DNA of 64,000 nt from Candidatus Omnitrophota bacterium. GTDB lineage: Bacteria > Omnitrophota > Gorgyraeia > 2-01-FULL-45-10. The translations under genes were made by a program, and so were the position numbers. The notes under the pieces were generated by a model. That model was not told the origin of the DNA. It saw only the letters and a list, made by a program, of their open reading frames with translations, and made no database searches. Numbering within the stretch: the first letter of the stretch is position 1; each line of letters begins with the position of its first letter. Location of the stretch: NCBI GenBank assembly GCA_017993955.1, contig JAGOLR010000002.1, forward strand, positions 26-64,025, in the 5' to 3' direction. Of the stretch, positions 5,604 through 43,849 are shown in pieces.

Positions 5604-5684
5604 ATTTTTCCTCCCGGGATTTTTTGGAAATCTTTCCATATGCATTCTTTATTGGATAACTTTTTTATCGTTTTATATATATTA

Positions 5685-5712: not shown

Positions 5713-5778
5713 TCCATATAAACTGACTTTTTTAACACTCAACAAATATGGTGTTATTGCTAGGAGCTAGCACTTTTT

Positions 5779-5893: not shown

Positions 5894-5951
5894 AAACGAA
5901 AAATCCGGCTTTACAATAACAGGTTAAAATAGCACCCGGTACAAGAAGATG

Positions 5952-17900: not shown

Positions 17901-20900
17901 TAGTTCGGGAAGCGGATTTTCGATGGGCGAGTTCACATGAGGAGTAGCCGCAGGAGCCCCGCTTTTCGGAGATTTAAAACCTATGCCTATCGGGAAACCC
18001 GGGTTCGTAATGAGCGCGTATTTCTCGGAATTTATCTTAGCCTTCAATACAAGGGCAAGCTGGTTCCCGCTTTCGCCATTTACGACCTTAGGTACGCTTT
18101 CTCCCTGTATATTTAATGGAACCACGGAATCATCCGGGGATCTGACAACGTCGAGATCAGGCTTCTGAATTACCCTGCAGATCTTCGAGTCAGTGTTGGC
18201 TATGACATGATATTTTCCGAAAATGGTAGCGGTGTCTCCTTTGCCAAGGGTGATGGTCTCTTGCTTCTTGCCATTTTCGTATATGTCTATTTTTAGAAAA
18301 CCTTCTTTTACAAGAATAACTTCCTGAAGGGGGGCGTCTCCGGTTGTCTCGAACTCCTCGCCTTCCTTTAATATCCTGACCTCCAATCCTATCCTGGGGT
18401 CCGGAGTACCTTCGTAAAAGTTGTCGCTTTTTATCAGAAGCGCCAATCTCTCTCCATTCGCGGATATCTCCTGGGCCGGCCTTTCGCCATGGTAAGACCG
18501 GGGCTTCAAAAATTCCATCTCTCCAGGCCGTAACGCGTCGGATGACCTTTTAGGCCTTGATTCCAACATGAGTTCCATCATCCTGCGTTCTTCTCCTGCC
18601 AAAATAGCCCTGAGCGCGCTTATGGCTCTGGGGTCTAGCCCTTCTTTGGACTTAATATAGTTAAACGTAGACATTAAAGACTGATATTCTATGCCTCTCT
18701 GATAATGAAGCCTCTCAGCGTTGTTGCCGTTCTCAAATACATCGCATACTATGAGCACGGAGAGCATAAGCTTCGCCTCTTCCGGCGTTATGCCGCTCTT
18801 CGACGCTGCTTCTTCGTATTCTTCCATCCCCGCGGGATAGAATAGATGGTTTGAAATTAGAAATTCCTCTAAAGGATTTATTTCAAACCCCAGGTTCTTG
18901 AGGACATCCAAGCTATGCCGCTCGTGGCTTATGTCGCTGGTAATCCATTCGATCTGCCATGCATCAAGGGTCTCTCCGTCCATGGCTGAAGCCGCGGCGA
19001 CGACCCGGGCTATACTTACATAGTATTTATCATCGTCGGGGACGACATATCTTGAAAGTTCAGGCCTTTCCGCTATAAAGGCGCGCAGTTGTTCCAATGC
19101 ATCTTCTTTTCTTGGCTGGGAGGCAAAACCGTATCTTCTCAATATGGACTGGTTTAGCTCTTTGTCTTCTCTTGCTGTAAGCATCGCCTCGTTGGCGCAG
19201 CTTACATCGTGGACTATCCCCACCCTGCCCAGGATATCCACAAGCTCTTTCTTAAGACCGAGATCTTCCGCTACCATAACAGCGTAGGCGCTTACCCTCT
19301 TCACGTGCTCCCTGTTCAGTCCACCGCCTTTTATGTTGGGATAAAGGGCGCAAAGTTCTTCTATCGAATATTCAGCGAGCTTAGTCCTCGGTCTCTTCGC
19401 TATCTTAGAAGACTTGCGGTATAACTCCTCGTATCTATTACCGGCCTCTCGCCATGTCGAATCGAATAACATGCAGTTGGATACCAGCTTGCCCCATACA
19501 CCTCTATTCCTTTTAAATAACATGTAAGCAGAAGCTATAGCGTCATACATAGCCTCGGGGCTGTATTCATCAAAATTAAATCCGTTACCTTCTCCGGTCA
19601 TGGGATTAAAAGGAGTTATGACATCGCTAAGACCGCCGGTTTTGAATACTATTGGCACGGCCCCGTACCTCATCGCCTCCATCTGCACCAAATTGCAAGG
19701 CTCCGTACCGTAGCGCGAAGGTATTATAACCGCATCCGATGCCGCAAATACCGTCCTGGGTTCACCAAATTCAGTCCGTATGTGTATCCTGCCGGCGTAT
19801 TTCATCGAAAGCTCTCCCAGGCGCTGTCCGTATCCGCCTACGTCAGGACCCAGCATCACAAGCTCTACGTCTTGGCCAAGCTCGCTCATCATGCGGTCGA
19901 TATCGGATATTATGAGATCGATGCCTTTTATATAATCGTACCTTCCCACAAAACCTATGACAAATTTGTCATTGCCTTCCGCTAGGCCGCTGGCTCTTTG
20001 ATACCGCAGTTTGTTATTTCTTTTGCCTGCTGCGGACGTACCGGCGCCGAAGACATCCTTGGCGTCTATCCCTGCCGGGACCGCGGGATCCCATTCCGAA
20101 TGGCTTATACCGTTCAATATAGAAAAGTAAGAGCCGGCCTGGAAACGTTCCCGTAGGATATCCGCAAAATCGCCGGCCACTTTCGCATCCAATGTCTCCA
20201 TAAGGTAACTGTGCCCTACGGTATTTACGGTATCCGAAAATATTACGCCTGCCTTTAAAAGCGATACCCCGCCTTCATACCTGAAGGCGTCGCTGTGGCT
20301 TGTAATGATATCCGGACGGCCTGCGGCAAAGGTATTTGTCTTATCGGTGCCGAAAAGGCCTTTATATGTCAGATTATGGATTGTCAGATTCGCGGCTACA
20401 TCATGAAAATATTCGGCATACTCAGGGAGATTCCTCATGTAGAAAGGCACCAGTGCCGTATGCCAGTCGTTGGCGTTGACTACATCCGGTTTTATCTCGA
20501 GCGATTTGATAAGCTCTAGAGCCCCTGCCGATAACAGGGTGAACCTGTCAAGCATCGCATCGTCTCCGCCGCCATATGGGCCGCTCTCATTGAAATATTT
20601 CGGGTTTGTGAGCAGATAAGCCCACGTGCCGTTCAGGTAAGTCCTCCGGACTCCGAGCGTCACAGACTCGCCGCGCAACCAAACTTCCAAATTTATATTA
20701 AGGTCCTCGCCGGCTTTTACGTCGTATCCGGGGGTTATGACGGCGACTTCGTTACCGTTACTATTAAGGTACTCCGGAAGCTCCAGCGAGACATCCCCCA
20801 AACCGCCTGCCTGGGCCACCCGTCTCATCTCTGCGGTAACGTATATTACCCGCGATTTTCCGGGAGCTATAGGTTTGACGCCGAACTGCTCTTTCCTGAA

Positions 20901-22859
20901 CTGGGGCCATATCTTCTCCGTGGAGCGGGAGTAAGCTAAAAGCGACCGCAAAGCGCGGTCCACAAATGCCGGGCTCTTAGGCGTAAAACCTTCTACGGGG
21001 CGGTTACCGTGTTCTTCCTTGAAGGCCTTATAGAACTCGCGGTAATTTTTGGACCACAGCCCGACAAGCCTGTTAAGCTCTTCCGCTTTCGCCTTCTCGT
21101 CGCGTATATCCTTTGCCGCCTCATACAAGGCCCTGGTAAAATCCCCGGAGTAAGAGTCGAACTTCTCTTCTTCGGTCTTTGACGGATCCTGGGCGAAATA
21201 CGCCCTTGTAGCTATATGGTACTGCCCGGTCTTGAGGAGTTTTTCGTAAGGCTTCTTCTTGTTTGTCAATATAGCTATGTAAGGACGCTCGCCCTTAGAG
21301 GGGTCGAACTTCGGCAGCATAACAAGATAGGAGCATCTCCTGTCGCGCAATAGACCGGTAAGTCCGCTCGTATGGTATCCGCCGGTTATAAGACATGCGG
21401 CCCGGGCTCCTTCAGAGTTCATCCGGCGTATAGTATTCTCGACCATGACCCTATTGCGCTCTTCGGCTGTAGTGTAGAAACTTATGGCCGCGGGAAGGGC
21501 GTCAAATATATTCTTTATAGATGCCGGATCTTCTATGCCAAGACCTGTTTTGCGGGAAACCTTTTCTAAAATGGCCGTAAACGCCGCGGGGTTTAGGGAT
21601 CGGCTGATTTTTATAAGTTCGGAAAATTCGTCATTACCCAATTGGAGACTGAAGAGACCGCCGGCGTATTCCATAAAACGCATGCATAGATCCAGCGCCT
21701 TCTCATCGTCATTCCTATAGAGCTTATTCTTTATCGCCGCGGAATAGTCCCGCAATTGGTTTGGTATGGAAGGGATGTCTATCTTTTCGTATTCCGAGAT
21801 ATACTCCGCATACTTGCAGAAAGAGGAGAATCTGTAAGGGTCGACGCCGTTCTTCTCGGCGGTGGACTTAAGATATGCGTGAAAATCTCCCGATGATATC
21901 CCGCCCTTCTTGAATTCCATGATGGACGAGACAAAAACCTCGAGCTCATTTTTAGTAAGTCTATCTGTTATGGCCGATATTATCGCCTTACGTTCGTCGT
22001 TTGCTTTTTCGAAATCTATAGACTTTTCCTGGTGGGTCAGAAAGGCGAGTTTTTTCAGATCCTTGTAAGGTTCGAGATCCATCCCTGCCTTGGCCGCTAT
22101 CGGACTTAATACGGACCATAGATGCTTGAACGGGATCTTACCGTCTTTATAGAGCGAGACATTCCCGTCCAATGCCTTGAGATCCTCCGAGTAAAGCCTA
22201 GCTGCCATATTCTTCAGAAGTCTCGTCGTACCTTCTATGTCGGCTCCTACCGTCTCAGCCTTTTCGCATACGCTACGGAGTTCCTCGACATTCCTTTTAT
22301 AAAGCTCGTCCTCTTCTATGCCGTAAAGCGCTATGGGTTTTTCGGAAGTTATGGAGAAGAACTCGCCAGCGGACATCCTGCCCTCTTTCATAAGGTTCCG
22401 GGCGGTGTTATCGCGGACTTTGGCGTCTGGGAATGTTTTAAGTAGAGACGTATCGATATAACCGCTCGTCCCTTCTACGGCCACTACCTTGATGTCGTAG
22501 TTTTTGACGAGCGTATCCAGGATAGACGATATAGATTCCTGGGCGCCTAGATAGGCGTGGGCGTCTTGGATGTTTATGATCGTTTTTCGTTCATCGTTTA
22601 TCGTTGATCGTTCATCGTGAGACCAGGATTCGCGGATATCGGCAAGACTCTTTGGAATGTTAATGGAAGCGTTTACATTATTGGGTCTAAAAAAGGCTTT
22701 GTTATCTATACTTTGAGGATTTTCCGACGAGCTTGTGGGTTTTGAGACAGGCGTAACGGCGTCCTGCGCCCAAAGGATATCCTGGTTCACAAAAGTCACG
22801 ACGAGAATAGCCGCGACTATTTTGACCCAGATATGATTTTTAAAACTAAGTATGCTCAT
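5952..22859 (-). CDS. giant (5635 aa) signal-peptide-bearing multi-enzyme fusion protein: conserved N-terminal module, glycogen synthase (GT5), 2x HD-like, 2x cupin-like, GHMP kinase, alpha-glucan phosphorylase (GT35), PEP-utilising enzyme domains, HExxH motifs, 2 internal TM segments
   Basis: Uninterrupted 16.9-kb ORF from ATG 22859-22857 to TAG 5954-5952. N-terminus [33 protein letters not shown] is signal-like. Domain motifs were read in frame; coordinates were checked by back-translating EASGTSGMK at 12147-12173. Confidence 0.9.
   Translation of the reverse strand: [5635 protein letters not shown]
8160..9197 (-). other. PEP-utilising enzyme domains (phospho-histidine swivel domain plus PEP/pyruvate-binding TIM barrel; PPDK/PEP synthase/EI-like)
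   Basis: GNSRSHWVI (compare GGRTSHAAI); [12 protein letters not shown] (compare GIGLxRTEhmF); [12 protein letters not shown] (compare MIEvP); [13 protein letters not shown] (compare FFSIGTNDLTQ). Confidence 0.7.
11790..13802 (-). other. alpha-glucan (glycogen/maltodextrin) phosphorylase domain, GT35
   Basis: [10 protein letters not shown]...[47 protein letters not shown]; PLP-lysine motif [14 protein letters not shown], back-translated at 12147-12173. Confidence 0.85.
14760..15722 (-). other. GHMP sugar kinase domain
   Basis: ATP-binding motif [15 protein letters not shown] (compare PxGSGLGSSAA) and motif 3 [13 protein letters not shown] (compare KLxGAGGGG). Confidence 0.7.
16770..17627 (-). 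other. HD-domain-like module, copy 2
   Basis: [20 protein letters not shown]...[12 protein letters not shown]. Shares [11 protein letters not shown](E/G)RL and RPELxRY blocks with copy 1. Confidence 0.45.
18540..19367 (-). other. HD-domain-like module, copy 1 (H...HD metal-dependent phosphohydrolase signature)
   Basis: [22 protein letters not shown]...[11 protein letters not shown]. The module is internally duplicated; see copy 2. Confidence 0.45.
19410..20858 (-). other. glycogen/starch synthase domain (GlgA-like, GT5)
   Basis: N-terminal motif [20 protein letters not shown] (compare E/KTGGLxDV). C-terminal motif [36 protein letters not shown] (compare PSRFEPCGLxQ...GxxP.V.xTGGLxDTV). Confidence 0.85.
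22260..22577 (-). other. conserved N-terminal module shared with gene 1 (unassigned fold)
   Basis: [16 protein letters not shown]...[22 protein letters not shown]...[15 protein letters not shown] aligns with gene 1 IHIQDAHCNYEAQTNI...KLVSVEGADGIVDTSWFKAFPD...EFLSITTDYPIKLFG (nt about 5049-5381). Confidence 0.55.
22580..22621. repeat. imperfect heptanucleotide tandem repeat (TCGTTNN x6) inside the 5' end of gene 2
   Basis: tcgtttt tcgttca tcgttta tcgttga tcgttca tcgtgag. Encodes [15 protein letters not shown] on the minus strand. Confidence 0.6.
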
Positions 22860-22895
22860 TTATTCTGGCTTTTTGTTTTCCTATATAATGAATAA

Positions 22896-22923
22896 ATAAT
22901 ACACTATAAAAACTGTAAGTCAA
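22896..22923 (-). promoter_or_regulatory. putative sigma70-like promoter for gene 2 (-35 TTGACT at 22918-22923, -10 TATTAT at 22896-22901, minus-strand reading)
   Basis: Same conserved block as upstream of gene 1: gtcaatcttaaaaatatgacttttttat versus gtcaatccatataaactgacttttttaa. Confidence 0.3.
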
Positions 22924-22972
22924 TCTTAAAAATATGACTTTTTTATATCTTAATTCACACCTCGTCATTGCG

Positions 22973-23108
22973 AGGAGCCGGTGCGTTTTTCGCTCTGTGA
23001 TATCTACTTACGTCATTGCGAGGAGCCATCGTTTTTTCGTCAGGCGATATCCCCCCGTCATTGCGAGGAGGCTGACTATCTCGCGTTGGCCGACGAAGCA
23101 ATCTCTCT
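22973..23108. repeat. repeat element cluster, copy 2: three CGTCATTGCGAGGAG half-sites plus one CGACGAAGCAATCTCTC half-site, abutting the stop codon of gene 3
   Basis: cgtcattgcgaggag at 22973, 23021 and 23057; cgacgaagcaatctctc at 23090-23106, 3 nt before the TAA (23110-23112). Confidence 0.8.
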
Positions 23109-23109
23109 T

Positions 23110-26100
23110 TTACGCTGACGCCAGAGTCGTCTTCCTGCCCTCATTGATCTTCTTCAGGTCGTCGTACTTCTCCACTATCGCCGACGGAGTCACGATGAGT
23201 ATCCTGCGGACTGCGTCCGATCTATCGTTATCCACCATCGGTATATTAGGAAGCTCCCCGCTCGCCGCGAAGTCCACCGCCGTCAAAAGCAGATGCGTGA
23301 TATCCACGTCTATTTGGCTGTCGAGAGACTCGCCGTATTTCTCATAAGCCGCAAGGAGTCGAGACGGATTTATACCTATAAGATACGCCCTGGCCTCGCT
23401 GTCTGTACTGCGTAATGGAGCGAACGCGGAGGACTTCTCGATAGATTCCTGAGACGCTATCGCAACGACATTCGAAAGGCTCGTTCCGGTTACGTCCACT
23501 CTGAGCTTCAGCTCGCGCGCCACATCATTATCGCTCCCCGTTATTATCTCCACATCCCCGAGGCCCCAAGATGTCATCTTTCTATATATGATCGACTTCA
23601 TCTCGTTAAGGAATCGGTTCGTCATATTACGCTGTAGAGACCCCATCTCATCATAGGCCGGTATCCAGCCGGTGCCTATACCGACCAGGAACTTCTCTTT
23701 CCGTTGTTTAGCGTTTCTGGTTTGAGCTATCAAAGATGAGAAGACACCGTTTGCCTCTATTTCATCCAGGCCTTCCATCAATTCCTCCATAGCACGCGCT
23801 GCGTCCTCGGATAGGCCTGCCTTGGCTTTCTGGCTGGCGCCGGTTATTACCTCGCTTATCCTATGCATTACCTCGGCCGTGGAACCGGTACTTTCTATCT
23901 TTCCGGATGTCACATCCCCGCCCTGCCCCATGGCGTTAACAACGTCGGCCAAACCATTTGCCTTCTTTACCATTTTGGCACGGACATTATTCACGTATGA
24001 TTCTATCTCCGCAAAAAGACCGGAATTGTCCTGACTTAACGGCTCGGATTCTCCGGTAGCTCTTTTTTGATTTTGAATGTTTCGAAGAATTTCGGCAGGA
24101 TCTCCGGACTTTGCGCTATTACTGCCCCCGTCAGTCCAGCTAAACGTTTCTATCGCGGGGAAAGAATCCATAGAGGCGAAGTAACTCAACTCTATATCCT
24201 GCATGACAAATTCATCCTCCGGGATGTCGGCGCGCTCTCTTACTATCCTGTCAAGCTCTTCGGTCATGGCAACATAACTGTCGAACGCCTCGCGACTTTC
24301 AGATATAGGATTTACAAGATACCCCAAAGTAACATGAGCTTTATACCCTCCCGGCTCGCTTATCCCTGTAGCTTCCTCTATTAGAGACCGCAGCCTATTA
24401 ACAATAGCCAGATCTTTCTCGGTCTTTGGCTTCATCCTTACTATGAGAGGGCGCGTCATGCCTGATGGCCTGAAAGCTACCACGCTTTCCGGAACAAATA
24501 CCGGAGCCTTATCCGCAACAAACCCGCGAAGCGCCTCGTAAACACGCTCGGTTACTACTTCGTATGCGGCCTGTTCCCTGGCTTTCTCTTCAGAACGGAA
24601 ACCGCCTTTTTGTATAAGCTCAACAGCGCGTTTATTAATGGCATCTTTAGTCTCTTGATTAAGTTTCTCCCTATACTTACCCGCCCAATCTGACATGCAT
24701 ATTAGGTCGCTTAACGTAATATGTTCAGAACCTGAAGCCACCGTAGCTATGAATCCTCTTCCGTTTTCTTTAGGCCAATTATTAATTACACCTGTAAGTT
24801 CTCTGAAAAGCGGATAGTTTCTTTTAGGGTGGCTTGATATTACCGTAACTCCCTCGAAAAATACAGGTTTACCGTCAGGGCTGTATTTTTTATGCGCCTT
24901 TTGTATATCGCCACGAAAAGGACCCTTGGCCTCTTCAGCTTCGGGATATACGGGTCTCATAGAGATATTTTTCTCCTGCGACGATACACCATTTACCGCC
25001 TGCGTCATCATCCCGTCTTCCGCTCTTCTTATCTCTGTGGATTGTTCCGAATTACTCCTGTGATGCAGGAATACATAGACTATCATACCGGCTACGATCA
25101 ATGCCATCGCTGCGGGAAACCAATATGAATATAGGAAGTCGAACATAGCGCTGTTAAATTCGAACTGTGCTTTTTCTATAGGGAAAGAAAACCCTTCCGT
25201 AAATGCCGGCCCGGCGAGGGTCATGGCTAGAATCAATATACCCAAGACACCTTTAAGCGTACTCTGTTTGGGCGCCGTTATGGGCCTATATAGATTGCGC
25301 CAACCCTCGGGAGACGCAGCCCTCAAGCCAAGCTCCGATTGACTACTGCCCGGCTGGGATCCCACCCCTATTTCGGTCGCATCTACATACCCGGATATAT
25401 CACCCTTCTCGCCCGGCGCTGCGGCAAGATCCCTCGTAACAACAGGCAGTCTCGGACGATGTGGAGTCCTGTTAAATATATCGCGGGCAAATACGTCTTT
25501 TTCCTGCAATTTATCGAAATATCTCCTGATCCTCTCTGCGCACTCCGTATCCACACCGTCTCCCGGGACCGGACCCAATATTGCAGATAATCCCGCCTTT
25601 AACTCGCCTACGACGCGCTGTCTTGAACCGAAAGAAACCGCTTCCGCCAAGGACCTCCATTCTTCGTCGCCGTACCAACGCACCCGGCGGTCCACTCCAG
25701 GCACATCCATGGGATGCCCGGACACGTTCAACAGATATACAAGATCCCTCAAAAGCATAGGCGCCTTGAATAAATCCTCCCATTCGACATTAGCGCCCTT
25801 ATAATACATGAGGTCGCGAAGGTTGATGAGCGAAAGAAGGTTATCGCGCGCATTCTCGGAGCCGTCGCGGGCTATATATTTACCTTCTTTATCTTTCAGT
25901 ATATCCGCCACCTTTACCAAAGAGACCTTCTTTACGGCTCCGTCGTCCCCGATTATAACGGCACCGCCGCGTTCTGTCGATTCCAGCGCTCCGCTCACGC
26001 CTGCCTTGTTAGTGGACCCGGGATCGGCCTTGACTATCAAGCCTCCCGCGAAACTATCTATGACCTCTTCTTCGGTACTGCTCTTATGCCCTACGATTAT

Positions 26101-29100
26101 CCTGTCGACATCGAATATACTGCACAGAAGCGCGGCAAGTCTCGCCTGGTCTTCTTCTGTTCCGCTGTATTTGCTCTTCTTTATACCCAAAAAATCGTAA
26201 GTGACATTGTCAGGCTCCGAGGTGTTCTTTACGTAACTATTGTAAAATCTGGCCTGTCTTCGGGCAAAGGTAGGTGAATATTGCCCGTCCGATATCATGA
26301 TAAACCATCTGTACGCGTCCCTTATCCTGCCGGACGCAAGATCCGCAAAAAGTTCATCGGATCTTCCTGTCGCTATGAAACGGTCATAGCGCCTTGCGAA
26401 CTCTTCCAGGTTGGCGTTTACCTCTTCGTAATAACGAAGGACCGATCTCTTTTCGTCTTCGGTCACATCGCCGCGCCATCCGCCGTCTTCGCCCTTCAGA
26501 CGTACAAGCGGCATGCCTTCCAGATCCACAAGCCACCCGTCCTCGTTCATCGCAGGTATCGCGTGGACCAGAAGCGCCCTTTGGGGCTTATTTAAAGCCC
26601 TCCAGAATGAAAGCCCTCTGACCCATTTCTGGGTCTCTTCATTCTTGTCCGCGCGCAGTTCGGGCAGGGCCGATACGATATCCCACGCCTTGCCGTGCCA
26701 TAATGTCCTGGCCCAGTTCCTAACTCCTTGCGCATTCAAGAACTGCCTCTTGAGGTCACTCAGTATATCCTCTTCTTCCTTGGTGAGTTCGCCGGACAAA
26801 TCCCTTATATACTCATCCACTCCGAGGGCCCTCAGGTCCTCTCCTTTTAAAACGCCTCTCTTTACGGCTACCTTAACCCATATATTGAATATCGCCTGCT
26901 CGGAGACCGAACTCATCCCTCTGTAGCCGACCGATTTTTTAACATCCTTTTCAACGGCGGATTCCTTTTCCAGTTTTTTCAATTTACCCAGAACGCTTTC
27001 GATTAGAGCGGTATTCAGATCCCTGTAAGATCTTGACAGGGCTTCTATAGCCTCTTTCTCTTCGGGCGCGAACTTATCGAGCTCCCCTAATGAGGCGTAA
27101 AACCTCTCCCAGTCACCGCCAAGTTTTTCGTTTACATATGCCGAAAGCCCCTTTAACCGCATATGGAGTTCCATGTTGCGCAATTTGCCGAGTTCGTAAC
27201 GGCCCTGGGCAAAATTCTCCAGTCGCTTCAGGTCTATGCCCATTGACTTCAGCGCTCTCTTCTGCCCGGGATAGCGCTCGAGCATCCATACATGCAGGGC
27301 TATCGAGTATTCATCCCCAAGCGAAGCTCCTAAGAACCACAGATCGTGATCGCCTAGTGTGAAGCGGTCCACAAGACTCATCATCTCTTCGAACTGACTG
27401 CCGCGGTCGAGTAGATCGCCGACGACCCATACATCGATGCCGGGATTACTCTTTGTAAGCCTGTCGAGAGAATCGGGTGAACCGTGAGTATCCGCGGATA
27501 TGAGCTTGCCGAAACCCGTACGTGATCTCGCCTTCTGCTCTTCCATGTCGTGCGCAAATAGCTCAAAGAGCTTCGTAAACCTGCCGCCGTCGTAAGTAGC
27601 GCGCCTCTCCGGAGTGACTCCCCCGTCTCTCCTGGTCATAAACTCGCCCGATACTATCACCGGGGCCTTGGTTCGGGACGCGATGAAGCTTTTGAACCCA
27701 TCGAGTTCCCCGGGCGTACCTATAGGACCGTAACGCCTGTTCCTTACATTCTCTTTATCGGAGCGTCCTTTTACAGGAGGGAATACGGTCATAGCATCAA
27801 GAACCTCTTTCGCGGTCTGGGCGGTGTCATTTACTATACAGTAAGTGAAGAGGTCCCCAAAATCACATCCAGTATGCTTCTCTATCTGTTCGTATATGTA
27901 TATGTAAGGGTTTATGCCGTTCTTCGCCCTCATGAAATCGGTTTCGTTATCATACATGGGATTGAATACGAATACGGCTATGGCGCCTCGCTCCCGCGCC
28001 CTTATTATGGCGTCGGTTATTCCTACGGGTAGCAGATCTACCAGGATACTGGTATAGAAACTCCCAGGACCTAGGACATAGAAATCTCCTTCGCCGAGGC
28101 TGTCTATCTCCTCTATGCATCTTTCATACGCCATAGGATATTCGCGGCGGTTCCCGAATGAAAGCTCAGATATCACCTTTTCATGGCGGGTATTAGTTAT
28201 TTCATCCTGGCCCACGATACTGGGGCTGCCGTCGGCAAAAGAGATAGACATCTCGCTGTCATTGAGATCTATGCTTGTGGGGAGCGCGACCATTACGTCC
28301 TCCACACCGGCTATATCGCGGCAAAACCTGTCTAGCCCGCGCTGGATACCTTCGGCCGAGAATATGCCTTTGCCGTATCCCTTCTCGAGGAGTATAGAGC
28401 CTAAAAGCGCCAGGTTCTGCACGGTATGATTGGCGAGAGGCATCCTGGGGAATAACCTGTCAACGGCCTGGGCGGATTCAAGGAGGTTTCTGGAGAAGTC
28501 GGACCAGCCCAAATCGCTTCTTAGCGTAGGGTCTTTCTCCCCTCTCTTCTGCTGATCTATCAATAGGCCCTCTACTATATCTGAGAACTTTCTACCCTTA
28601 CCGGCCAGTTCGTCTTTGCTGAACCTGTGGCCAAGTATCTCTTTTCTTTTACGGGGCCCGCGGTTTACAATAGCCTTGGCGATATCGCCTAAAGCCAGCG
28701 AATCTATATCGAGCTTATCCTTTAATAACCTCCGTATCTTCCCGGTACTCCTTCCCGCGTCGAAAGGCGTGATAGCCTTTCTGACAGACCAGCCGTATCC
28801 TCCGAAAGTATCGTCGAAGAACTGTATCCCCGCCCCTCCTCCGGATATAAGCACCTTCCTCTTCCTGGATGTACTGCCCCCCGTTATAGCGGGTAGGCTT
28901 GGGGGGGTCGCGGCTTCGGACTGACGCAGTATGGCGTTCCATATCTCTTCCGGGCTTTGCGCGGATTCTGATATATCTAAAGGCAGCGTCTCTTCCTTTT
29001 GAACCCCATCATCGTAAATAATAGCGGTCTTCTCCCCGGTCAAAATGGCCTGGCCGTAAGATATAGTCGCCCCGAGATCCACAGCCGAAGCTATACCTAA

Positions 29101-32100
29101 AAATAACGCTATGGCGGCAAGCCATCGGCCTAGATAAGACCTCTTCTCGATACGGCGCGGAGAGGCGCTACCGGGTCGTGCCTCTTCCATACCCGCAAGA
29201 AGCACATTATGCGCTTCCTCCAACTGCGGGGCCTCCATCATGCCATCCCTGAAGAATGACGACCCCGCCACAAATATATTGGCACCCGCAGTCAGCGCAC
29301 TCTTTATGGTATCGCCATTTATGCCTCCGTCTATTTCTATAGGCCCATCATAACCGTAATAGAACCTGAGGCGTCTTATATTGGACAAGGCTGAAGGTAT
29401 GAACTTTTGATTGCCAAGTCCCGGATGGACGCTCATCTGCAGGACGATATCTATATCCTGGCGGTGCTCCATTATAAATCTCCCGGCCGAGTCTATTTTT
29501 GTATTCGGATTAAGGGCAATACCCGCCATGGCTCCTCGGCTTTTTATATAACGTAAAAGCCTTAAAAGCTTGCCTTTGTCCTCGAAACCCTCCCAGTGGA
29601 GCGTCACTATACCGGCGCAATTATCAAGATATTTGGCTATGTAGCTTTTTGTAACGTTCTCGTCGGTATCCATAATGTGGAGATCAAAAAGAGGCGTGAC
29701 GCCGAGCTCGCGCCTGTGGCACTCGTCCAGAACATCTTTTAAGAACCGCGGCGTTATTTTGTCGGTCGTATCTTTGCCGCCTTTTTGCACTATCGCGTTA
29801 CCTCTGCCCCCGCTGTTATTTATGCGGTCAAGATGCACGATGGGCCTGCGGCCTTCTCCGGCGAAGATCTCTATGGCATCAACGGTACTTTTGACGCGCT
29901 CTCCGTCGGGTACATTCAATACCGAAGGCGATATCACGAATTCGTCTGCTACAAGCGACGCATGTAAAGGCAACACGTACAGATAATATACTACTGCCAA
30001 GAGCGGTATAAATATGAGCCAGATAGGATGTAAGAATACGCTGCTTAAGATCCCATCAGAAAATATATCCTGAGCGGCATCCTGTGCAAACGCCCGGCCC
30101 GGGAAAAGCATCGCGGCAGTTAATACTCCTATAGTCCCGAGAATATTACGTCTGTCAGTACCCCGTCCGGCTGGACGATATTGGGCCTGGACGTTTCCGG
30201 CCGGCCCCTCATCATCGAATGAGGCAGGCGAGCTACTTTTAACCTTTATCTCGCCATTCCTGTATTCGACATCGAATAGATTCATTATGCCGGCCCTATT
30301 GGGATCAAGTCTCATGTTATCCCAAGAGCTTACTATACGGGCTACCCCATTTTTACCGGCTACAGCGTTCTCCACGTCCTGCCATCGCCGCAGCACAAGC
30401 GATCTTGCCTTATGCGCCGGCAGTCCGGCCAACCTCAAAGCCTCCATGGCTTTTTTAGCGACCAGTATCTTCGCCGCATCCGAGTGGGAAAAGACGACGG
30501 GCAAGCGTTCAGGGCTAAAGCGATTATTTTCCGCAAACCACATCATCCCCCTGATATAGTTAGACCTGCTTCCGCTTCCTTGAGAGTTAAGGATAGATTT
30601 ATAATATGAGGAGCGGAATAAGGGCCATTTCCAGAAGTTCGTGTTCCACATTATTAGAAATGCCGTCAACGCTAGAGCCGCGATGGCAAGTTGCGGGTGG
30701 GTGGATACCTGCTCCCATATGGCGGATAATACGCCTTCGCCACTCTCTACAACAGCCCCCCTTGTCACATCTTCCGCAAAGACCGGTCCTGATGTAAAGA
30801 TAGCGGCAAGTAGCGCAAATATTAAGATCCGCATATGTGCGGCATAGCCATTTTGGCCTATTTGACGATCGTATCCGGACTTTGACACAGAATCGCTTCT
30901 TCTGCCGTAGTCTGGATCGAGATCCAGGTCCACAAGTGCCTCCGCTATGGCCTCGCCTCCTTCGACATGGGAAGGCGTATTATTTATATCCTCAGCCAGA
31001 GCCCCTTCTCCCTTAATGGCTATCATAGACCATGAGCCGTTATATTGAAGTCCGCGTATCATCGTGCTTCCCATGGATTCGAGAAGTTGACGGGCCTCCT
31101 CTACAACGGGATCAGTGAATTGCGTATTGCCCCAGCCGGCGAACCCGCCCTCGTCAGCTACCGCCAAAAGCACTATCTCGCCGTCGGGAATGCTATTCAT
31201 ATAATCGATGAACTCTATGAAACTCTCAACGTTGGCGCGATCGCCGCCGTAAGTATCGAAGTTCCTGGTCTCTTTCATTCTTATGCCGGTATTTCTATCA
31301 AGGATGGCTACATTGATACCGCGTCCGCCGGTGCCGCCACCGCCCCTAAAATATACCGTTTTTTCTCCTATGCCGAATGAGGCGTCGCCATGCGAAGTCG
31401 CCGTAAGTAACGGCCTGCTGTTAAGCGCCACGGCGGCTTGGCCTTTCGTAAATCTGTCCTTCAAAGCATTAAAAGCCTCTTTAGGATTGCCGTCTATATC
31501 GGCAACCCCGAAATATTCTTCGTCGTTACGACCATCGGGTTGTCCGGAGTTGTTCTCACCGCTGGTATCCTGATGGTTCGGGAACCCCAGCTTCCACCAT
31601 TCATCACGCAATTCAAAGACAAGCCCTCCTATGGCTGTGCCGGCGGTCCTCTCGGCGGAAAGCTCGAAAAATATCTCGTCCCAGAGCCATCCGTTCACCT
31701 CTGCCTGCATGGCCTCATTTTCGTCTGGTATCCTGTGGTCAAAGGAGTCTGCCCCGAATTCAGATATAAAGATCGGCTTGTCCGATATGGAGCGCCATTG
31801 TTGGAACACGTCTTCCATGCTTGTACCCCGGTATATACTAAGACCCCAGACATCTACGCTCGGAACGAGCGTATTTACAATATCGGTGGTATATGCGTAA
31901 CCGTTCATCTCTAACGGGAATTCTTCCGGGCTTAATACGTGGTAACCCGGCACATGCGGGTCTGCGAATACAGTAGATACCGGGTGGTTATTATCTATCG
32001 ACTTTATAAGTTGCGCGGCCCTCTCGGTGAAATCGGCAGCATCGAGGCCGGATGCGAATTTTCCGTAGTAGTAATTGATATCCCATTCATTTCCTATAGC

Positions 32101-35100
32101 CCACATAAGAATGGCCGGATGGTCCTTGTAAGCCTCCACTACCCTTCTAACATTATCCATATCGGCCACTACCCCGTATCGGGGAGAATCTACGGCCATG
32201 ATGAGCTTTATGCCCATCCTGTAGAAAGCGTCCAGTATCTCGAAGGCCTCGGGACCGGTCCCAAAATCGTAATAAACTCTCGCGACATTTACGCCCATCC
32301 TCGACATGAGCGAAAGGTCGGCTTTGTACCATTTATAAAATTCCTGGGTTATTGTCGATACGGGCGCGCCCTTGGTGTGAGGCGACCAGTTGACCCCGCG
32401 CGCGACAAATGAATATTCCCCGCCCAGAGTGCCGTCCGGGAGCCTCTCCCGCACGAATAAACGCCTGTCATGCTCTTCTGCGTAAGCCAGGCTCGGAGAC
32501 CTTGGCACCGGCGGCAGCGTCTCGAGCATTATATATCCCGCGAATTGCGATACAAGGCCTGCCCTGTCTTTCGCCTGACACAATATCTCCTTTATACCGT
32601 CACCTTCTGAAAGGGTCATCGCCTTTGAAGTAACGGGTGTCTCCCATGATGTCCAGTTCTCCCCGCCATCCAGAGAGAACCTCAAAGCGCTCAAACCCGA
32701 ACCGGAATCCCGAGCGTTTATATTGACGGTGACACTCCTTGAATCGGTGGTCTCTTCACCGCCGTTTATCGTCAAAACGCCGGTGGGCGGTATCGTATCC
32801 AGGCGTATATCAAAGCTGTATTCTGCCCTCCCGCCCGAGGAATTGGTCTCGACTATAACGCGGGTATTGAGCCCTTCCGAAAGCTGGAAAACAGTCTGTC
32901 TGGGCTCTCCGTCTACCGTATAATCCACAGTAAGCACAGGCGAAGTCGTTATCTCCGGTATCTGGCTCATGATAGCTATGACGGGGTTTATCACGTTAGG
33001 TTTATTACAACCTGTCTGCCCGAGCAGGGCTGGCAAACCCAGGGATGCCAACATAATATTTACAAATGTCCTGCGTGAAGTAAGGCCGCTATCAGAGACG
33101 CTACCGGCTTTACCGATCTCTACAAAAAGTCCGGGCCATATGACTTTCTCTATCGTCCGTCTTACCTTATTCAATATGGCCGCATCTTTAGACGGAGCGT
33201 TTTGAGGCTCCGCGATACCGGCCGCCTCGGCAACCTCATCCAATATGATGACAGTCTTATCTTTAAGCTCTCCCGGGAATCTCGCTTCCAGGGTGGCTTG
33301 CAATCCTTTGTTTACGAATATTATTACGGCAGCCTCTCGCACCTCTTCCAGCGTAGCGGGCCTTGAATCTACTTTCACCGGCTCCTCGCCGAACTCTTGA
33401 CGGAACGCCTCCGCAAGAGGAGCATTTGTAGCCCCCCAACCGAGCTCGCTTTGATCGCCGGCCGCGCCGGAGCTCACCTTCATATATCTAGACAGTTCAT
33501 TTTTATTTATGAGATGGTTAAGGACCATCTGCATGGCGGGACTTCTGTTGTAATTAGAATTACAAACGCATAGTATGGGACCGGCCGGTCTAACCCACTT
33601 GGACTCGGTTTCGGCTACATAGCCCACTCTATCTGTAATACCGTTATTCTCTTCTACAGAAAAAGTATGCTCGTCAATAAAAGCCTTCTCCTCACCGGAT
33701 CCGGCGAGCGCCCAGATGTCAGCCGTTTCGATCTCAGGCGACATGGGCTTTATGCCTTCGGCGACCTCCCACGCGGTATTAGAAAAGGTGGCTTCCTTGG
33801 CTACAAGGTGGCGCATCCTAAGCGACAACTCTATGAGACCGTAACCTTTAGAGGCAGATCTGGACGAACTCGAGGCGTCTGCAATATATTGATAGATAAT
33901 AACCCCGATCAGAACCGCCAGAAAGACGCTAACCCCGAAGATGACATAATGATTAAATGTAAAATTTTTGAGTGCCGCAAATGAAAGATTTAAGATCACC
34001 GGCTGGACGGATTCCGTAAACGGTCCCGCGGCTTGCGCTGAAGCCGAGCCGGCGATAAATACCGCGGTTAAGAACGCGATCATTGGAGCAAGGCCTCGTA
34101 AATTACCCGAACTTCCGGCATCTTTTCTTTCCGCCGGGGCGTTGGCGATGGCTTTGAAGCCTTTCAACGCATCATCAACCATAGGTCTTAGTCTCGGATC
34201 CAGCTTGGCCGCATGCCTAAGATCTCTTTCGCCCTCGTCTTCCATATTAATAGCAAAATATAAAAGTCCCCTGTTATAATATGCGTTTGCAAAGTTAGGA
34301 TCGATCTTTATGGCTTTATTAAAATCATACAGCGCGAGACCTAGTAGGCCTGGCCCTTGCACGTAACTAAAACCACGGTTATTATAAGTAGATGCTTCGA
34401 TCTCATTCTCGGGGCTCAACTCAATAACCTTCGTCAGATCCTGAATAGCCCTAGGATAATCCCTTAATATGTCAAAGTATATACTACCCCTCATCTTGTA
34501 CGCATTAACATAACCTGGGTCTATGCTTATAGCGCGGGAAAAGTCTCGTAATGACTCCGGATACCTGCCCGCCACAAAATAACATGTCCCCCTATTATTG
34601 TAAGCATCGGGATTGTTGGGATTAAATTCTATAATTTTGGTAAAGTTATATATAGCTTTTGGATGATCCAGACCTAAGATGCCGCATGCAGCCACAAGAT
34701 TTTTATAAGCGGTATCGTTCCGGCCATTGAGTTCTAATGACTTGATAAAGTCTGATATCGCTCCAGGCACTCTGCCCAGCGCTAAATGGCATATTCCTCG
34801 TAAATTGTACGCTAGATCAAAATCCGGATTATGTTCTATGGCTTTATTAAGCGCGGTTAAAGCGTCATTATATCTATCTTGCTCGAAAGCCCTTTCTCCC
34901 TGCGTATAATATTTTGTGGCTTCGCTGATCCGGGCCGCGATATCACCTGCGTTCTCTTTGACATCCACATCGCCCGCTCGATGGCTGGGCAATATGCTGA
35001 ATAAACCGGATATTGCAAGAAATATAACCGCTAACCGCATCATAACTTTCATGGCAATCTTCTTTGATCTTGTGGCGCGATCTTCCTGATATACCACCCC

Positions 35101-38100
35101 GGAATTGTCAGCCAAGATATAACTTAATATTCGCCATGTTATGTAAGATGGTACCAATGCGGCAATTACTAATAAAAACGTTCTGGGAGTCACTGAAAAC
35201 CACGAGAAGTTGAATGCTTCTGACCCGCTTTGCGCAAATGCCGAGCCGGAGGCGAGCATGGCGGCGAGGAAGATGCCGAGCGTGCCTGTTATACCCGGGC
35301 TTTTTCCTTGCGGAGATTCGGGTTTCTCCGCAGTAGCCGTTTCCTCTTGGGGAGCATCCTTGATCTCTTCTTCGGCTCCTTCGGCCGGAACCCAATATCC
35401 CGCAGAACTTCCTCCGCCACTATAAGCGTCAAAGTACCCAGAATCGCTGTAGTCAGAATATCCGGTGTCGTTGTTGTTATCTTCGTACGAATTCCGTACT
35501 AGATCTTCATGATGAAGCCAATTTTTCCCACCGGTAATGCCGGCCATTAAGAAAAAGGTGGCGATGACAGGAAGCATCATTAAACAAGCGCTAAGAAAAC
35601 CGGGGAAGATTCCGATTATGTAGCTGAAAACTACCTCGAATCCGCTATGCGAAGTTTGAAGAGACGTGGCGCAGGCGATTGTGAAGTTAATTACCAAAAA
35701 TAATAGCGATGGCAACAATCCCAGACACATAGCAAGATCATTGCGTTCCGAGTCATGCGGCCTGCGTGAATATAGGCCAGCGATTACCCCTGTTATGGCC
35801 GGTACAACAAACATGAAAGTTATAAACGGATGCGATGATATCGCAAAATAAAAAGTTGATAATATTTTAGTTGCGCCGATATTTGTCGCGATACCGTCTG
35901 CCCATGCGCCGCTGGAGGCGAGCATGGCGACGAGGAGTATGTCGAGTTTGCCGGCCGTGCCCGGCCCATTCTTAGTCGTCCCTCGTCCTTCGTCCCTCAT
36001 CCCTCGATCTTCCATACCGTTCTGGGGAACGTCCCCGGCCTTGTTTCGCTTTTGCCCTTTCACTACATTAAGAACGGCGGGGGCATCTGTTATCGTTACA
36101 GTAGTTGAACCATATGAATTACCATAAGCGTCATACTCTTCCTGTTCTTCTTCGTGAGTTTTTGCCGGTACATATTCTACAGTAAAATCATACCCATTCT
36201 TCAAGCATTCCTTAATAACGTCCATCTGAGATGACGTAATATTCGCATCGTTGCCATCAAGAACATTAAGGGTATTCAGAATGCTTTTTACCAAGCCCGG
36301 GTCCGAAACCCTTTTAACGGCTTCCGCTATACGTTCTTTCTCGTACCCAACCCCCCATTGATTATGAACCTTATCGCTTTCTATCCTCTCCAATGCTCCT
36401 ACAACATAATCCGGCATTGTGCTGTCTATAAGCTCCTGCAGATCATGTCCCATAGATACGAGAATAGAAGCGCACACATCGCTTTCAAGAGCTTTAATCG
36501 CAGCGGCGCGAAAACTGGTTCTAAGATGAATGATGCATTTTTCAGTAATGCGTGTACGTAATTCGACTAATAAGCCATCATCGGCTCCAAGTTTTTTTGC
36601 CGCATCTATGATTGGTTTTTCCACATCACTATATAACCCATTAGCAAAGTTACCATGATCTATATACTGCTCCAGTAATGAGATAGCTCGCGGATCGCCG
36701 AAATTACCGAGCTCTACGACTACCTCCTCAGCAACATATCCGGAGGTGTAGTATTTCAACAATACATCCTTATGAAGCTGGAACAATTCTTCCCGCGTGG
36801 CGCCAAGATCTTGATACGCCCTTATCAATGCCCTGTACACAAAACTGCTCCCGGATTCGGCAAGCGGAGACAAAAGTTTCATGACAGACTTATCACCAGA
36901 TTGCCCCAAAACCTCTACTGAAGCTGCTAGTCTATCTCCCTCAACTGAACGCCAATTTTTAACAAGCCTAAGCGCCTGAGGATGGGATATTTTTTCGCCT
37001 GACCTTGGCATCCCGATATCTTTACGTGCAGTTTTATTCGCAAGTCCGGGTTTTTCGCCAGAAGATGCCTCCGATACAGGCTTTTCCATTCGAGAAACTT
37101 CTCCTACGCTTCTTTTAAAAGCGTTTCCCATAACGATATTTAACAAAGAAAGTCCCGCCAGAGGTAGCCAGAAGCCCGAACAGTAAGAAAAATATTCGGT
37201 CGCGAGAACTGTTAGGAATAGATATGCGGTCAGGCCCAAAAACTTATGATCTCTGAAATAGGAGACGGCTTTAAGCATTACCCTGGAAAGAGTCGGACGG
37301 TAATTATCTAGATATCCATACGCAAAGCTCGCTACGATTACCCCGAAGCTGACCGGATGAAAAGGCGCCATTAAAAATACAACTGCCGGGACGCCAACTT
37401 TGGCAGGATTTATATCGCGCTTAAATACCTTCTTTGCTATGAGCCATATAATGGCGCTCGCCAAAAAGACTATGGCTGTAACGATTATGCCATCTATGAA
37501 AAGCTGTCCTAAACTTAAAAGTGGCGCACCGTAAGGTGTGACCTGTATCGGGAGCGTGCCGGTAGGACCTGCCGGAAGAGGCATATGCCCTCCCATGGAA
37601 GGACCTCCGAAATACGACGGTTGCGCAGCTGCCAATCCGGACGCGAGCATGGCGGCGAGGCCGCCTAACAGGAAAGGAATAAAAGAATGCGCCCGCAAGG
37701 ATGGTGTGGACCGGCGACCTCTGGTCTCGAGCCATTTTTTGAGTGCTTCTATCTCTGAGAGACGCCATCTCTTCTTAGCCTCAACCTTAGCTGCGTCGCC
37801 TTTTATCTCTTCCCATCTGGCGAATTGGGCATCTACAAAAAGGTCCTCGCCTAAAACCCTGTAGTTATCTAAAGGCGGCAACGTACGCCTGAATATATCC
37901 ACGCCTGAAATAGGAATCGCTCCCGAATATGCGGTAAGTTTTCTCCTTATGACCTGGGCCATCGGTAGTTTCTCGCCCCTCGCCGCCTTTTTCAGTGTTT
38001 CAAGCCCCACCACTTCGTAATTGGCCTCAAGCCCCGGAGCGATCTCTTTGGCGGTTACCTTAAGCTTGGATGATGCAATGCGGGTGAACTCCTTTTCCCC

Positions 38101-42948: not shown

Positions 42949-43015
42949 TATAGACCCCTTGGTTTTGTTAAATCCAAATTACAAATTTCAAAATCCAAAT
43001 AAATGAAAATCTTCT

Positions 43016-43104
43016 CTTCGTCATTGCGAGGAGCTATTGCTAGACTCAGGCGACGAAGCAATCTATTTTTTAGATTGCTTCGGCCCTTCGGGCCTCGCAA
43101 TGAC
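43016..43104. repeat. nested-palindromic repeat element, copy 3 (full unit)
   Basis: cgtcattgcgaggag-ctattgctagactcagg-cgacgaagcaatct-attttttt-agattgcttcg-gcccttcgggc-ctcgcaatgac. Confidence 0.85.
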
Positions 43105-43134
43105 AAATAAGAAATCGTATTACTCAATAACAAT

Positions 43135-43428: not shown

Positions 43429-43444
43429 TTTAATTCTTTCTTTT

Positions 43445-43489
43445 AGATTGCTTCGTCCTTCTCACTTCGCTCGAAGTCCTCGCAATGAC
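43445..43489. repeat. partial repeat element, copy 4 (right half), 17 nt upstream of the GIY-YIG start
   Basis: agattgcttcg-tccttctcacttcgctcgaagtc-ctcgcaatgac; the central cttcgctcgaag is itself palindromic. Confidence 0.75.
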
Positions 43490-43568
43490 AGGCTGAATTT
43501 TGTCATTTGTCATTGTTAACCCCGCTTTGCGCATTACGTTTTACGCTTCCGCTAGTCTTTATAAATCT

Positions 43569-43613: not shown

Positions 43614-43760
43614 GAGTAGATACAATTTTTGCTACTCTGACGTTTTAGCTTACACCTATGCATATTAGTTTCATTTTTTATCAAATTCTACTATATAATT
43701 TATCACAGCTACTGCTTTAAATCAATGCAAGTCCTTCTGTCTTTTTTCTCCCTAACCTGT

Positions 43761-43849
43761 TGTCATTACGAGGAGCTATCGCCAAACTCAGGCGACGAAG
43801 CAATCTCTTTTTTTAGATTGCTTCGGGCACTTCGTGCCCTCGCAATGAC
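43761..43849. repeat. nested-palindromic repeat element, copy 5 (full unit)
   Basis: tgtcattacgaggag-ctatcgccaaactcagg-cgacgaagcaatct-cttttttt-agattgcttcg-ggcacttcgtgcc-ctcgcaatgac. Confidence 0.85.

Follow-up and report, generated by a model that had tools for sequence, protein, structure and literature searches.

Introduction

The giant proteins of Omnitrophota known as 'Archaeovorins' combine HEAT, GT5, GT1 and TPR domains with many transmembrane (TM) helices and, less commonly, carry TIM, GPI, FBPase, PGM/PMM, FBA and PPDK-type domains, according to the sections consulted of West-Roberts et al. (2023; 10.1101/2023.11.21.568195). The FBPase, TIM, GPI and PGM domains were predicted there to be extracellular, a result that the authors themselves doubt and for which they suspect topology errors. 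In the sections consulted of a 2026 preprint (10.64898/2026.06.07.730766), a 'multi-enzyme metabolic cluster' class and a co-occurrence module of sugar-metabolism Pfam domains are described, and TM helices or a signal peptide are reported in 94 % of long proteins. The size cut-offs given are ≥10,000 amino acids (aa) in the preprint and >30,000 aa in the earlier work, and SecA-DEAD is found in most of the proteins. The present work deals with gC, a complete open reading frame (ORF) on the minus strand of a window of 64,000 nucleotides (nt) from Candidatus Omnitrophota bacterium (contig JAGOLR010000002.1, assembly GCA_017993955.1), in which domains resembling ribulose-phosphate 3-epimerase (RPE), CofD/YvcK and class III FBPase follow one another.

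Growth under gluconeogenic conditions requires GlmR/YvcK, a protein that binds UDP-GlcNAc and stimulates GlmS and that has also been reported as an accessory uridyltransferase, as stated in the portions covered of three articles (PMC6171935, PMC7525490, PMC10128056). We propose that gC is a membrane-tethered multi-enzyme protein in which an active RPE-like module lies beside a YvcK-like/FBPase-III-like didomain acting as one unit, a reading in which our confidence is evenly balanced.

A CofD-phosphatase pair conserved among Omnitrophota proteins

An earlier, sequence-only reading of the window had placed RPE, CofD/YvcK and a class III FBPase-like phosphatase consecutively on one chain at 27049-29931, and had suggested that these normally separate cytosolic proteins are functionally coupled. 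The four signatures quoted in it are all present on the minus strand, in the single frame of gC, and no rival plus-strand ORF of ≥150 aa was found across the trio region. Moreover, Ribul_P_3_epim, CofD and FBPase_2 all scored above the Pfam gathering thresholds and far beyond chance, so that the profiles support the CofD and FBPase_2 assignments, and the metal-binding residues are kept in RPE and plausibly in the phosphatase. The order of the three modules on one chain was thus borne out, but there is no direct fusion of RPE to CofD, since about 115 residues, with a signal-like segment among them, lie in between. Likewise, the domains do occupy the span indicated, but position 27049 (aa 5300) cuts the phosphatase, whose end is placed at about aa 5890 because of a continuous 53 %-identity alignment with relative P0001.

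Relatives of the phosphatase module were collected by an exhaustive HMMER search of 1.84 billion representative sequences with a two-sequence profile (phosphatase modules of gC and P0001; E≤1e-3), which returned only 27 proteins. Those with names are Candidatus Omnitrophota proteins from metagenome-assembled genomes whose annotation reads 'CofD family' or 'YvcK family'; one of them is binned as Deltaproteobacteria. When the 26 relatives other than P0001 were scanned by Pfam, FBPase_2 was matched in 19 (best E=1.4e-260), CofD in 10 and PGM/PMM in 3, and the RPE profile PF00834 in none. P0001 itself, a protein of 2,060 aa from a groundwater Omnitrophota genome, consists of a signal peptide, a head, CofD, an FBPase_2-like module, DUF218 and a tail, and its CofD and phosphatase regions form with those of gC an unbroken block of 53 % identity over 1,235 aa, with no TM segment in between. 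Local profiles place CofD directly N-terminal to the phosphatase in at least 10 relatives (P0001, P0004-P0008, P0010, P0012, P0013 and P0015), and P0009 has the phosphatase module without CofD. The remaining domains vary: PGM/PMM in P0005, GT2 in P0006, LMWPc and NTP_transf_3 in P0007, DUF218 in P0001, and HEAT and 2H phosphoesterase in P0004. Two further scans of genome contigs revealed no additional relative, and two metagenome scans gave a single find, contig L005, whose protein product matches P0001 exactly.

An RPE domain precedes CofD only in P0002, a 796-aa fragment 80 % identical to gC, and the gene upstream of P0001 contains no RPE. Membership of RPE in the conserved unit was rejected on these grounds, none of the 26 relatives having PF00834 and a TM segment separating RPE from CofD in gC. 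Taken together, the comparisons show that CofD followed by the FBPase_2-like module is a conserved didomain and that the RPE-CofD-phosphatase trio is lineage-specific. Functional coupling, as proposed earlier for all three, seems plausible for the CofD and FBPase-like parts, which stay together without an intervening TM segment in at least 10 relatives, but RPE falls outside this unit. Also in favour of our proposal, the partner domains found in relatives (PGM/PMM, NTP_transf_3, GT2, LMWPc and DUF218) belong to sugar-phosphate or nucleotide-sugar enzymes.

The contig of P0001 (L001) has its didomain gene flanked by two large genes, at 1-9715 and 16280-24490. One neighbour product, of 7,021 aa, shows Sigma70_r4 and HATPase_c matches and hairpins with AxA-type sites similar to those of gC, and the other, of 2,736 aa, has a cupin-type GPI domain and a head like that of the neighbouring protein gB of our window.

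Identity of the two halves of the didomain

The excised CofD-like domain was matched by CofD (PF01933) with 56.1 bits (E=4.2e-15; gathering cut-off 30), and it contains VLISGGGAG, FDAGRSTG and GPGSFYTSIL (aa 4699-4709, 4728-4739 and 4960-4969), corresponding to the motifs GGGxG, DxGxSxG and GPGSxYTS. Profile positions 2-260 are stretched across 352 residues of gC, pointing to some 90-120 inserted aa relative to YvcK that are conserved in the family. All PDB matches of this domain are YvcK-type UPF0052 proteins (2ppv, 2o2z, 2hzb, 2q7x and 2p0y). Just two CofD-type models of NCBIfam were matched at E≤1, that of the YvcK subfamily and, with a lower score, the GAK CofD-like model (44.8 against 340). 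The domain is therefore a CofD family member on the YvcK side, and not a YvcK equivalog.

The excised phosphatase was matched by FBPase_2 (PF06874) with 35.5 bits (E=4.8e-9; gathering 27) over profile positions 188-277 of 639 alone, a match overlapped by Metallophos (25.1 bits), and P0008 independently matches FBPase_2 at profile positions 506-559. The metallophosphoesterase motifs follow one another as D5153-x-H5155 (motif I), G5177-D-LL-D-R-G (II), G5199-D-H-D with Asn replaced by Asp and followed by LWFLGASLG (III), LLVH5462AIPAMNEDG (IV), SPTFAR, and G5620-H5621 (V). When an alignment of 11 family sequences was compared by hhalign with P0024, a fragment of a Firmicute-type Fbp, a probability of 97.9 % was obtained, and with a relaxed alignment threshold the two were collinear over positions 2-488 and 128-528, respectively. 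GDLLDRG was paired with GDIYDRG, SPTFAR with SPLFGK, LGDHDLWFLGASLGDE with WGNHDILWMGASLGDE, LTKEEEDILSDLKRQF with LSEEEKKIIKGLKRSF and LLVHAIPAMNEDG with LLFHACIPLNEDG, and the segments paired in the extended alignment include LTKEEE..LKRQF, LLVHAIPxxNEDG and SPxFxR. Motif I (DxH[A/G]) lies about 24 aa before motif II wherever it was detected (11 of 12 didomain proteins), whereas in the Firmicute type it is located far upstream. A search of PDB sequences with the phosphatase module gave no meaningful match and hence no solved homologue. Homology to class III FBPases, as had been read from the sequence alone, is supported by these alignments, and the expected metal ligands are plausibly all present, but the module represents a distinct, divergent FBPase_2 subfamily.

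The RPE-like module and selection on gC

PF00834 matched the excised RPE-like piece with 103.4 bits (E=1.4e-29; gathering cut-off 21.1), and RPE sequences of the PDB matched with E-values down to 2e-24 (4nu7). The PF00834 match covers profile positions 59-198 alone, and the profile and PDB alignments are confined to β3-β8, the region over which free-standing RPEs are about 45 % identical to the gC barrel. A MAFFT alignment of the barrel with 22 RPEs and P0002 (alignment A3) also places the N-terminal third. In this alignment, the metal and catalytic residues H4372, D4374, H4424 and D4540 stand in invariant columns, and the Met cushion (M4426), the phosphate-binding glycines, Pro-Ser, D4422, M-S-V-x-P-G-x-G-x-Q (PGLGNQ), Asp-Gly-Gly and Gly-Ser (VAGSS) are retained as well. 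The near-invariant VMDGxFVPN loop that follows H-x-D in RPEs is replaced in gC by the longer RINNSGGRGNAIVQKGGKDTTDKITP, and the equivalog level of NCBIfam (TIGR01163) is not reached, at 109.6 bits where 212.6 would be needed.

An AlphaFold2 (AF2) model based on A3 (pLDDT 81, pTM 0.83) shows eight strands alternating with helices, with low confidence in the remodelled loop only. A Foldseek comparison of this model with the PDB returned RPEs or allulose-6-phosphate 3-epimerases at all ranks from 1 to 37, with TM(target) scores of about 0.8, a support that is partly circular since the alignment was made of RPEs.

Nei-Gojobori comparison of gC codons with those of contig L004, which encodes the 80 % identical P0002, gave dN/dS values of 0.13 for RPE, 0.10 for the CofD part and 0.16 for the TM2 segment before RPE, against 0.6 for the RPE-CofD linker; the values are approximate, as dS is about 1. 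Purifying selection acts on the RPE and CofD domains, which are no relics. With the full metal and acid/base machinery kept under such selection, the RPE-like module is most likely an intact, active metal-dependent ketose-phosphate 3-epimerase, whose exact specificity is left open by the remodelled substrate loop.

From about nt 2110, shortly past GPGSFYTSIL, the L004 sequence diverges abruptly after ...LLPVGITDA into Asp-rich TSP3-like repeats (DIDDDNDGIPD...), which reflects either domain recombination in the family or a chimeric short contig.

Architecture of gC and its hairpin linkers

The gC chain starts with a signal peptide or anchor, a signal-peptide-like segment MINFRSHFAIKVISIILIAAFLSLDISWA↓HP (arrows mark putative cleavage positions), and continues with a head domain, more than ten modules split by TM hairpins, and a C-terminal tail (Table 1). 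Neither the head nor the tail is matched by Pfam, and the same holds for the C-terminal extension of the didomain. Tails end in every case in A(A/S)A-COOH (LRAA, LASA, SSAA or LAAA; ...TTLASA in gC), an ending that resembles the ssrA-like LAA terminus. The head signal peptide of these giant and large proteins reads ..DISWA↓HP, and the enzyme cargo between head and tail is variable. Besides the trio, whole-ORF Pfam searches detected, ahead of Ribul_P_3_epim, CofD and FBPase_2, the domains HEAT, TPR, LMWPc, a GH2_C-like barrel and ILEI.

Nine hairpins delimit the gC modules, each composed of a signal-like TM1, an acidic loop of 10-40 aa and TM2. The TM1 consensus is ..L..AMLASGSAFA followed by Q, E, D or G, with small residues at -3/-1 as in a signal peptidase I site. 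At the DNA level, eight copies of a 40-nt element encoding TM1 form repeat family D1, with 63-88 % identity. The hydrophobic segment that separates RPE from CofD (aa 4609-4629) has no partner TM segment, and it is kept in P0002.

Repeat families D2 and D6 are low-complexity coding repeats located ahead of several gC hairpins, with sequences such as ERETQDARRKTS... and DPSL(H/R)SGRFAEE(A/V)DGKSR (gC aa ~170-290, ~880-905 and ~2310-2330). A twin-arginine plus lipobox signal (SRRTFVNIMLASLGLPALLGQTGC; LLGQTG-C) is found inside gC at aa 3291-3314 (nt 33007-33078), between a cytoplasmic-type LMWPc and the extracellular-type GH2_C-like and ILEI domains, and this region resembles a one-time lipoprotein gene that has been fused in. 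The last cargo module (nt 23962-25056, aa ~5965-6329) contains two H-x-T/S-x motifs (HITLS and HVTLG) and gives a weak match (E=0.042) to 2H-phosphodiesterases (DUF1868), the same family that is clearly matched downstream of the didomain in P0004.

Table 1. Positions of the features discussed, in nucleotides of the window; aa numbers are those of gC
Feature	Position	Strand	Remarks
Gene A	starts near 5600, runs off window start	minus	≥1,880 aa; weak PGM_PMM_II match
gB	5952-22859	minus	5,635 aa; Glyco_transf_5 + GT1, GHMP kinase, Phosphorylase, PEP-utilizers_C (Pfam)
gB head + tail	22400-22859 + 5955-6700	minus	
gC	23110-42948	minus	complete ORF, 6,612 aa; RPE-, CofD- and FBPase_2-like domains
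gC head	42439-42948	minus	common to gC, P0001, P0006, P0008
TM hairpin before RPE	29965..30144	minus	TM1 aa 4269-4289 (...AAMLFPGRAFA↓QD), acidic loop, TM2 aa 4300-4328
RPE-like (β/α)8 barrel	29224..29946	minus	aa 4335-4575; Pfam, PDB sequences, alignment A3, AF2
LQMSVHPGLGNQKFIPS motif	29392-29442	minus	aa 4503-4519
RPE-CofD hydrophobic segment	29062..29124	minus	aa 4609-4629; RRIEKRSYLGR-WLAAIALFLGIASAVDLGATI-SYGQA↓ILT; signal-peptide-like, single
CofD/YvcK-like domain	27574..28872	minus	aa ~4693-5125; Pfam, NCBIfam, PDB sequences
GPGSFYTSIL	28042-28071	minus	aa 4960-4969
FBPase_2-like metallophosphoesterase module	25279..27573	minus	aa 5126-5890, ~750 aa; Pfam, hhalign, motif census
VVGDLLDRGSQ	27394-27426	minus	aa 5175-5185
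LGDHDLWFLGA	27325-27357	minus	aa 5198-5208
TM hairpin closing didomain	25066..25257	minus	TM1 aa 5898-5918 (...LAMTLAGPAFT↓E), loop, TM2 aa 5941-5961
gC tail	23113-23961	minus	~250 aa; common to gC, gB, gD, P0001, P0004, P0006
D1 copies	25195, 30082, 30772, 34033, 35230, 35896, 37621, 40189 (span 25195-40228)	minus	in gC
Low-complexity repeats	42171-42423, 40254-40320, 42240-42306, 35970-36012		in gC
gD	44283 to beyond 64000	minus	>6,563 aa; runs off window end
REP/MITE-like copies	5753-5921, 23012-23119, 43008-43132, 43439-43494, 43750-43850, 44151-44241		intergenic

Proposed organization, membrane sidedness and competing explanations

According to our proposal, globular modules would be strung along the membrane by the repeated two-helix hairpins between head and tail, and the RPE-like barrel would be one such module, placed beside the didomain through modular shuffling and not as an obligate partner. 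In the didomain, a domain of CofD/YvcK type that binds nucleotide-sugars or acts in phosphotransfer would be joined directly to a Mn-dependent phosphoesterase, a compact and divergent member of the class III FBPase family. It could hydrolyse a sugar (bis)phosphate to fructose-6-phosphate or a related hexose phosphate, and this hydrolysis may be coupled to the sensing or synthesis of UDP-sugars in a step like that of YvcK/GlmR. The product might then feed the nucleotide-sugar and glycan/glycogen enzymes of this chain and its neighbours (PGM/PMM, nucleotidyltransferase, GT2, GT5/GT1 and GlgP). A cytoplasmic location of the modules is what the positive-inside rule would predict from the hairpins, whose flanks are positive and whose loops are acidic: summed over the nine hairpins, K+R against D+E residues amount to 25 and 11 in the 15 residues before TM1, 6 and 18 in the loops, and 21 and 13 in the 15 residues after TM2.

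Several observations weigh against this proposal, beginning with the fact that the activity, substrate and localisation of the modules are predicted. The CofD-like domain belongs to the CofD family as had been read earlier, but its best NCBIfam model, the YvcK subfamily TIGR01826, is matched with 62.9 bits, far under the cut-off of 196. In the phosphatase, profile positions 1-187 of FBPase_2 are unmatched, meaning that the N-terminal ~190 positions are absent in gC, and a ~140-aa insert between motifs I and II is likewise absent. Motif III is GDH[D/E] wherever detected (9 of 12 didomain proteins) and not the canonical GNHD, the C-terminus is prolonged by a conserved stretch of about 250 aa, and an AF2 model of the 770-aa module, built on a two-sequence alignment, reached a pLDDT of 35 and gives no structural support. 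Given the Asn-to-Asp change and the absent N-terminal positions, FBPase specificity is a presumption. As for location, the segment at aa 4609-4629 has five K+R before it and one after it, a pattern by which the didomain would flip to the outside, and what precedes the didomain in P0001 and P0008 and the lone phosphatase module in P0009 is a single signal peptide at the N-terminus (SWA↓xP-type site), with no further TM segment. By standard rules, the single signal-like TM segment and the signal peptides of relatives would make the didomain extracytoplasmic, a location at which neither FBP nor UDP-sugars would be expected. The hairpin that follows the didomain, with its positive flanks and acidic loop, contradicts an outside location. 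The side that each module faces therefore seems ambiguous for gC, a multi-pass membrane protein, and the label 'cytosolic' given earlier to the three modules is uncertain; the same uncertainty is reported in the sections covered of the published giant-protein studies (10.1101/2023.11.21.568195; 10.64898/2026.06.07.730766). An argument from global TM parity was dropped, as hydropathy does not fix the number of helices in the clusters at aa 1755-1950 and aa 2335-2474.

These topological signals are the basis of an alternative that we regard as unlikely, although worth serious consideration, namely that the didomain is exported to the periplasm or surface and has phosphorylated glycans, nucleotide-sugars or sugar phosphates from prey as its substrates there, without a part in gluconeogenesis. 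Other modules might then be outside too, such as the GH2-like and ILEI domains that follow the twin-arginine and lipobox signal, and family names would denote fold and not function. Apart from the signal peptides of relatives and the charge pattern before the didomain, export would fit the position of that internal signal ahead of extracellular-type domains, the phosphoester theme that runs through the matches to DUF218 (P0001), 2H-phosphoesterase (P0004), LMWPc and NAGPA, and the extracellular predictions of West-Roberts et al. for FBPase, TIM, GPI and PGM domains, which are weakened by the topology errors suspected by these authors. However, the substrates of RPE, GlgA, GHMP kinase, PEP-utiliser and FBPase (ATP, phosphoenolpyruvate, NDP-sugars and sugar phosphates) are cytoplasmic, and the hairpin after the didomain speaks for the inside.

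A rather improbable reading, compatible with the others, is that gC is a polyprotein cut by signal peptidases I and II at the AxA sites and at the lipobox, which would release separately anchored or exported enzymes and leave no mature fusion. Indeed, the nine hairpin TM1 segments and the segment at aa 4609-4629 all have a K/R n-region, an h-region and small residues at -3/-1 (AFA, AWA, AAA, ASA, VFA, AFT and GQA), an acidic loop follows each hairpin TM1, the signal-like motif before CofD is kept in P0002, similar segments occur in the giant gene beside P0001, and the lipobox stands behind a twin-arginine motif. Nevertheless, cleavage is itself a prediction, and the likeness of eight TM1 copies at the DNA level (D1) means that the shared AxA may reflect linker duplication and not selection for cleavage. 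No AxA-type site lies between CofD and the phosphatase, so that both would stay fused in any case. It is similarly improbable, in our estimation, that such a polyprotein yields, among others, an exported CofD/YvcK-FBPase-III didomain for the extracytoplasmic sugar phosphates of a predatory ultrasmall bacterium; were gC a polyprotein, the conserved didomain would also tie the YvcK/GlmR family, long enigmatic, to FBPase as a Rosetta-stone link. Hardly credible is an artefact, in which the ORF would be a chimera of the assembly or a series of decayed domains without function. The divergence of the P0002 contig into TSP3-like repeats after the GPGS motif points to recombination or mis-assembly in the family, and REP/MITE-like repeats occur in and around gC. 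Against an artefact, the RPE-TM-CofD junction recurs in an independent sample at 80 % identity, the CofD-phosphatase junction recurs in at least 10 proteins, dN/dS is 0.10-0.13 with catalytic residues intact, and 19.8 kb are free of stop codons between a conserved head and tail.

The giant genes of the window

The window contains at least four huge, co-oriented genes, all on the minus strand. GlgA, GlgP, PEP-utiliser, GHMP-kinase, HEAT and TPR domains are distributed across them, and those that had been read from the sequence of the neighbouring gene (GlgA, GlgP and PEP-utiliser) were recovered by Pfam in gB. The phosphoglucomutase seen earlier in the first gene fell short, since the PGM_PMM_II match of gene A scores 27.5 bits and is under threshold. 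No Pfam match at E≤0.001 corresponds to the UDP-sugar pyrophosphorylase-like domain that had been assigned to gD, which is almost dark to Pfam (the sole match at this level is a weak NAGPA of 22.9 bits) and has many TM clusters of a type unlike those of gC. SecA-DEAD gave no Pfam match in gB, gC or gD, and scans of the window for Rfam families and tRNAs returned nothing.

The spaces between the giant genes are filled by elements of about 90 nt resembling repetitive extragenic palindromes or miniature inverted-repeat transposable elements (REP/MITE), in which terminal inverted repeats, CGTCATTGCGAGG ... CCTCGCAATGACG, enclose an inner hairpin, CGAAGCAATCT-N5-AGATTGCTTCG. A partial copy lies in frame within gC at 42119-42174 and is hence translated.

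Comparison with known systems

Compared with the RPE family (PF00834; TIGR01163), the gC module has the full barrel and the motifs H-x-D, D-x-H-x-M, M-S-V-x-P-G-x-G-x-Q, D-G-G and G-S, but differs in its replaced and lengthened loop after H-x-D, its sub-equivalog score and its tethering between TM segments. The CofD-like domain shares with YvcK/GlmR (UPF0052) the motifs GGGxG, DxGxSxG and GPGSxYTS, and its best PDB and NCBIfam matches are YvcK-type and not F420 CofD, whereas the score below the cut-off, the insertion of ~90-120 aa, the fusion to a phosphatase and the location within a membrane protein set it apart. In common with class III FBPase (PF06874; B. subtilis Fbp/YydE type), the phosphatase has metallophosphoesterase motifs II to V in the same order, as well as GDxxDRG, G-x-HD-LW-x-GA-x-G, LL-H-x-x-IP-x-NEDG, SP-x-F-(A/G)-(R/K) and GH; the differences are GDH[D/E] in place of GNHD, motif I about 24 aa before motif II, the absent N-terminal part, large helical insertions, the ~250-aa C-terminal extension and the CofD-like domain in front. 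The mechanism of YvcK/GlmR, which is needed for gluconeogenic growth in Firmicutes, is still debated, and the conserved fusion to a member of the FBPase family offers independent, testable evidence of a link at the fructose-6-phosphate node.

The nearest relatives are the Omnitrophota giants, with which the window shares the phylum, an N-terminal signal, many TM helices, HEAT/TPR scaffolds, clustered co-oriented genes and divergent central sugar-phosphate enzymes on one chain, together with GT5/GT1 and a PEP-utiliser (PPDK-like) on the neighbouring gB. Its proteins differ in their size, of 5.6-6.6 thousand aa compared with ≥10 or >30 thousand aa, and gC lacks SecA-DEAD and dockerin/TSP3. Term searches of the main texts of both papers (supplements excluded) found neither CofD nor RPE on giant proteins, and the sections covered, again without the supplements, contain no CofD-FBPase_2 didomain and no AxA hairpin linkers. 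gC adds a well-dissected example to these poorly understood giants, shows that in some of their 'metabolic' domains, at the least, the catalytic residues have been kept and purifying selection is at work, and offers, with the AxA hairpin linkers and the internal twin-arginine and lipobox signal, concrete sites for probing the processing and topology of giant proteins. Thus, gC is a further example of the multi-enzyme giant membrane proteins already described for Omnitrophota, to which are added here a conserved CofD-FBPase_2-like didomain that does not have RPE as a conserved partner, a distinct phosphatase subfamily, and AxA hairpins as separators between modules.

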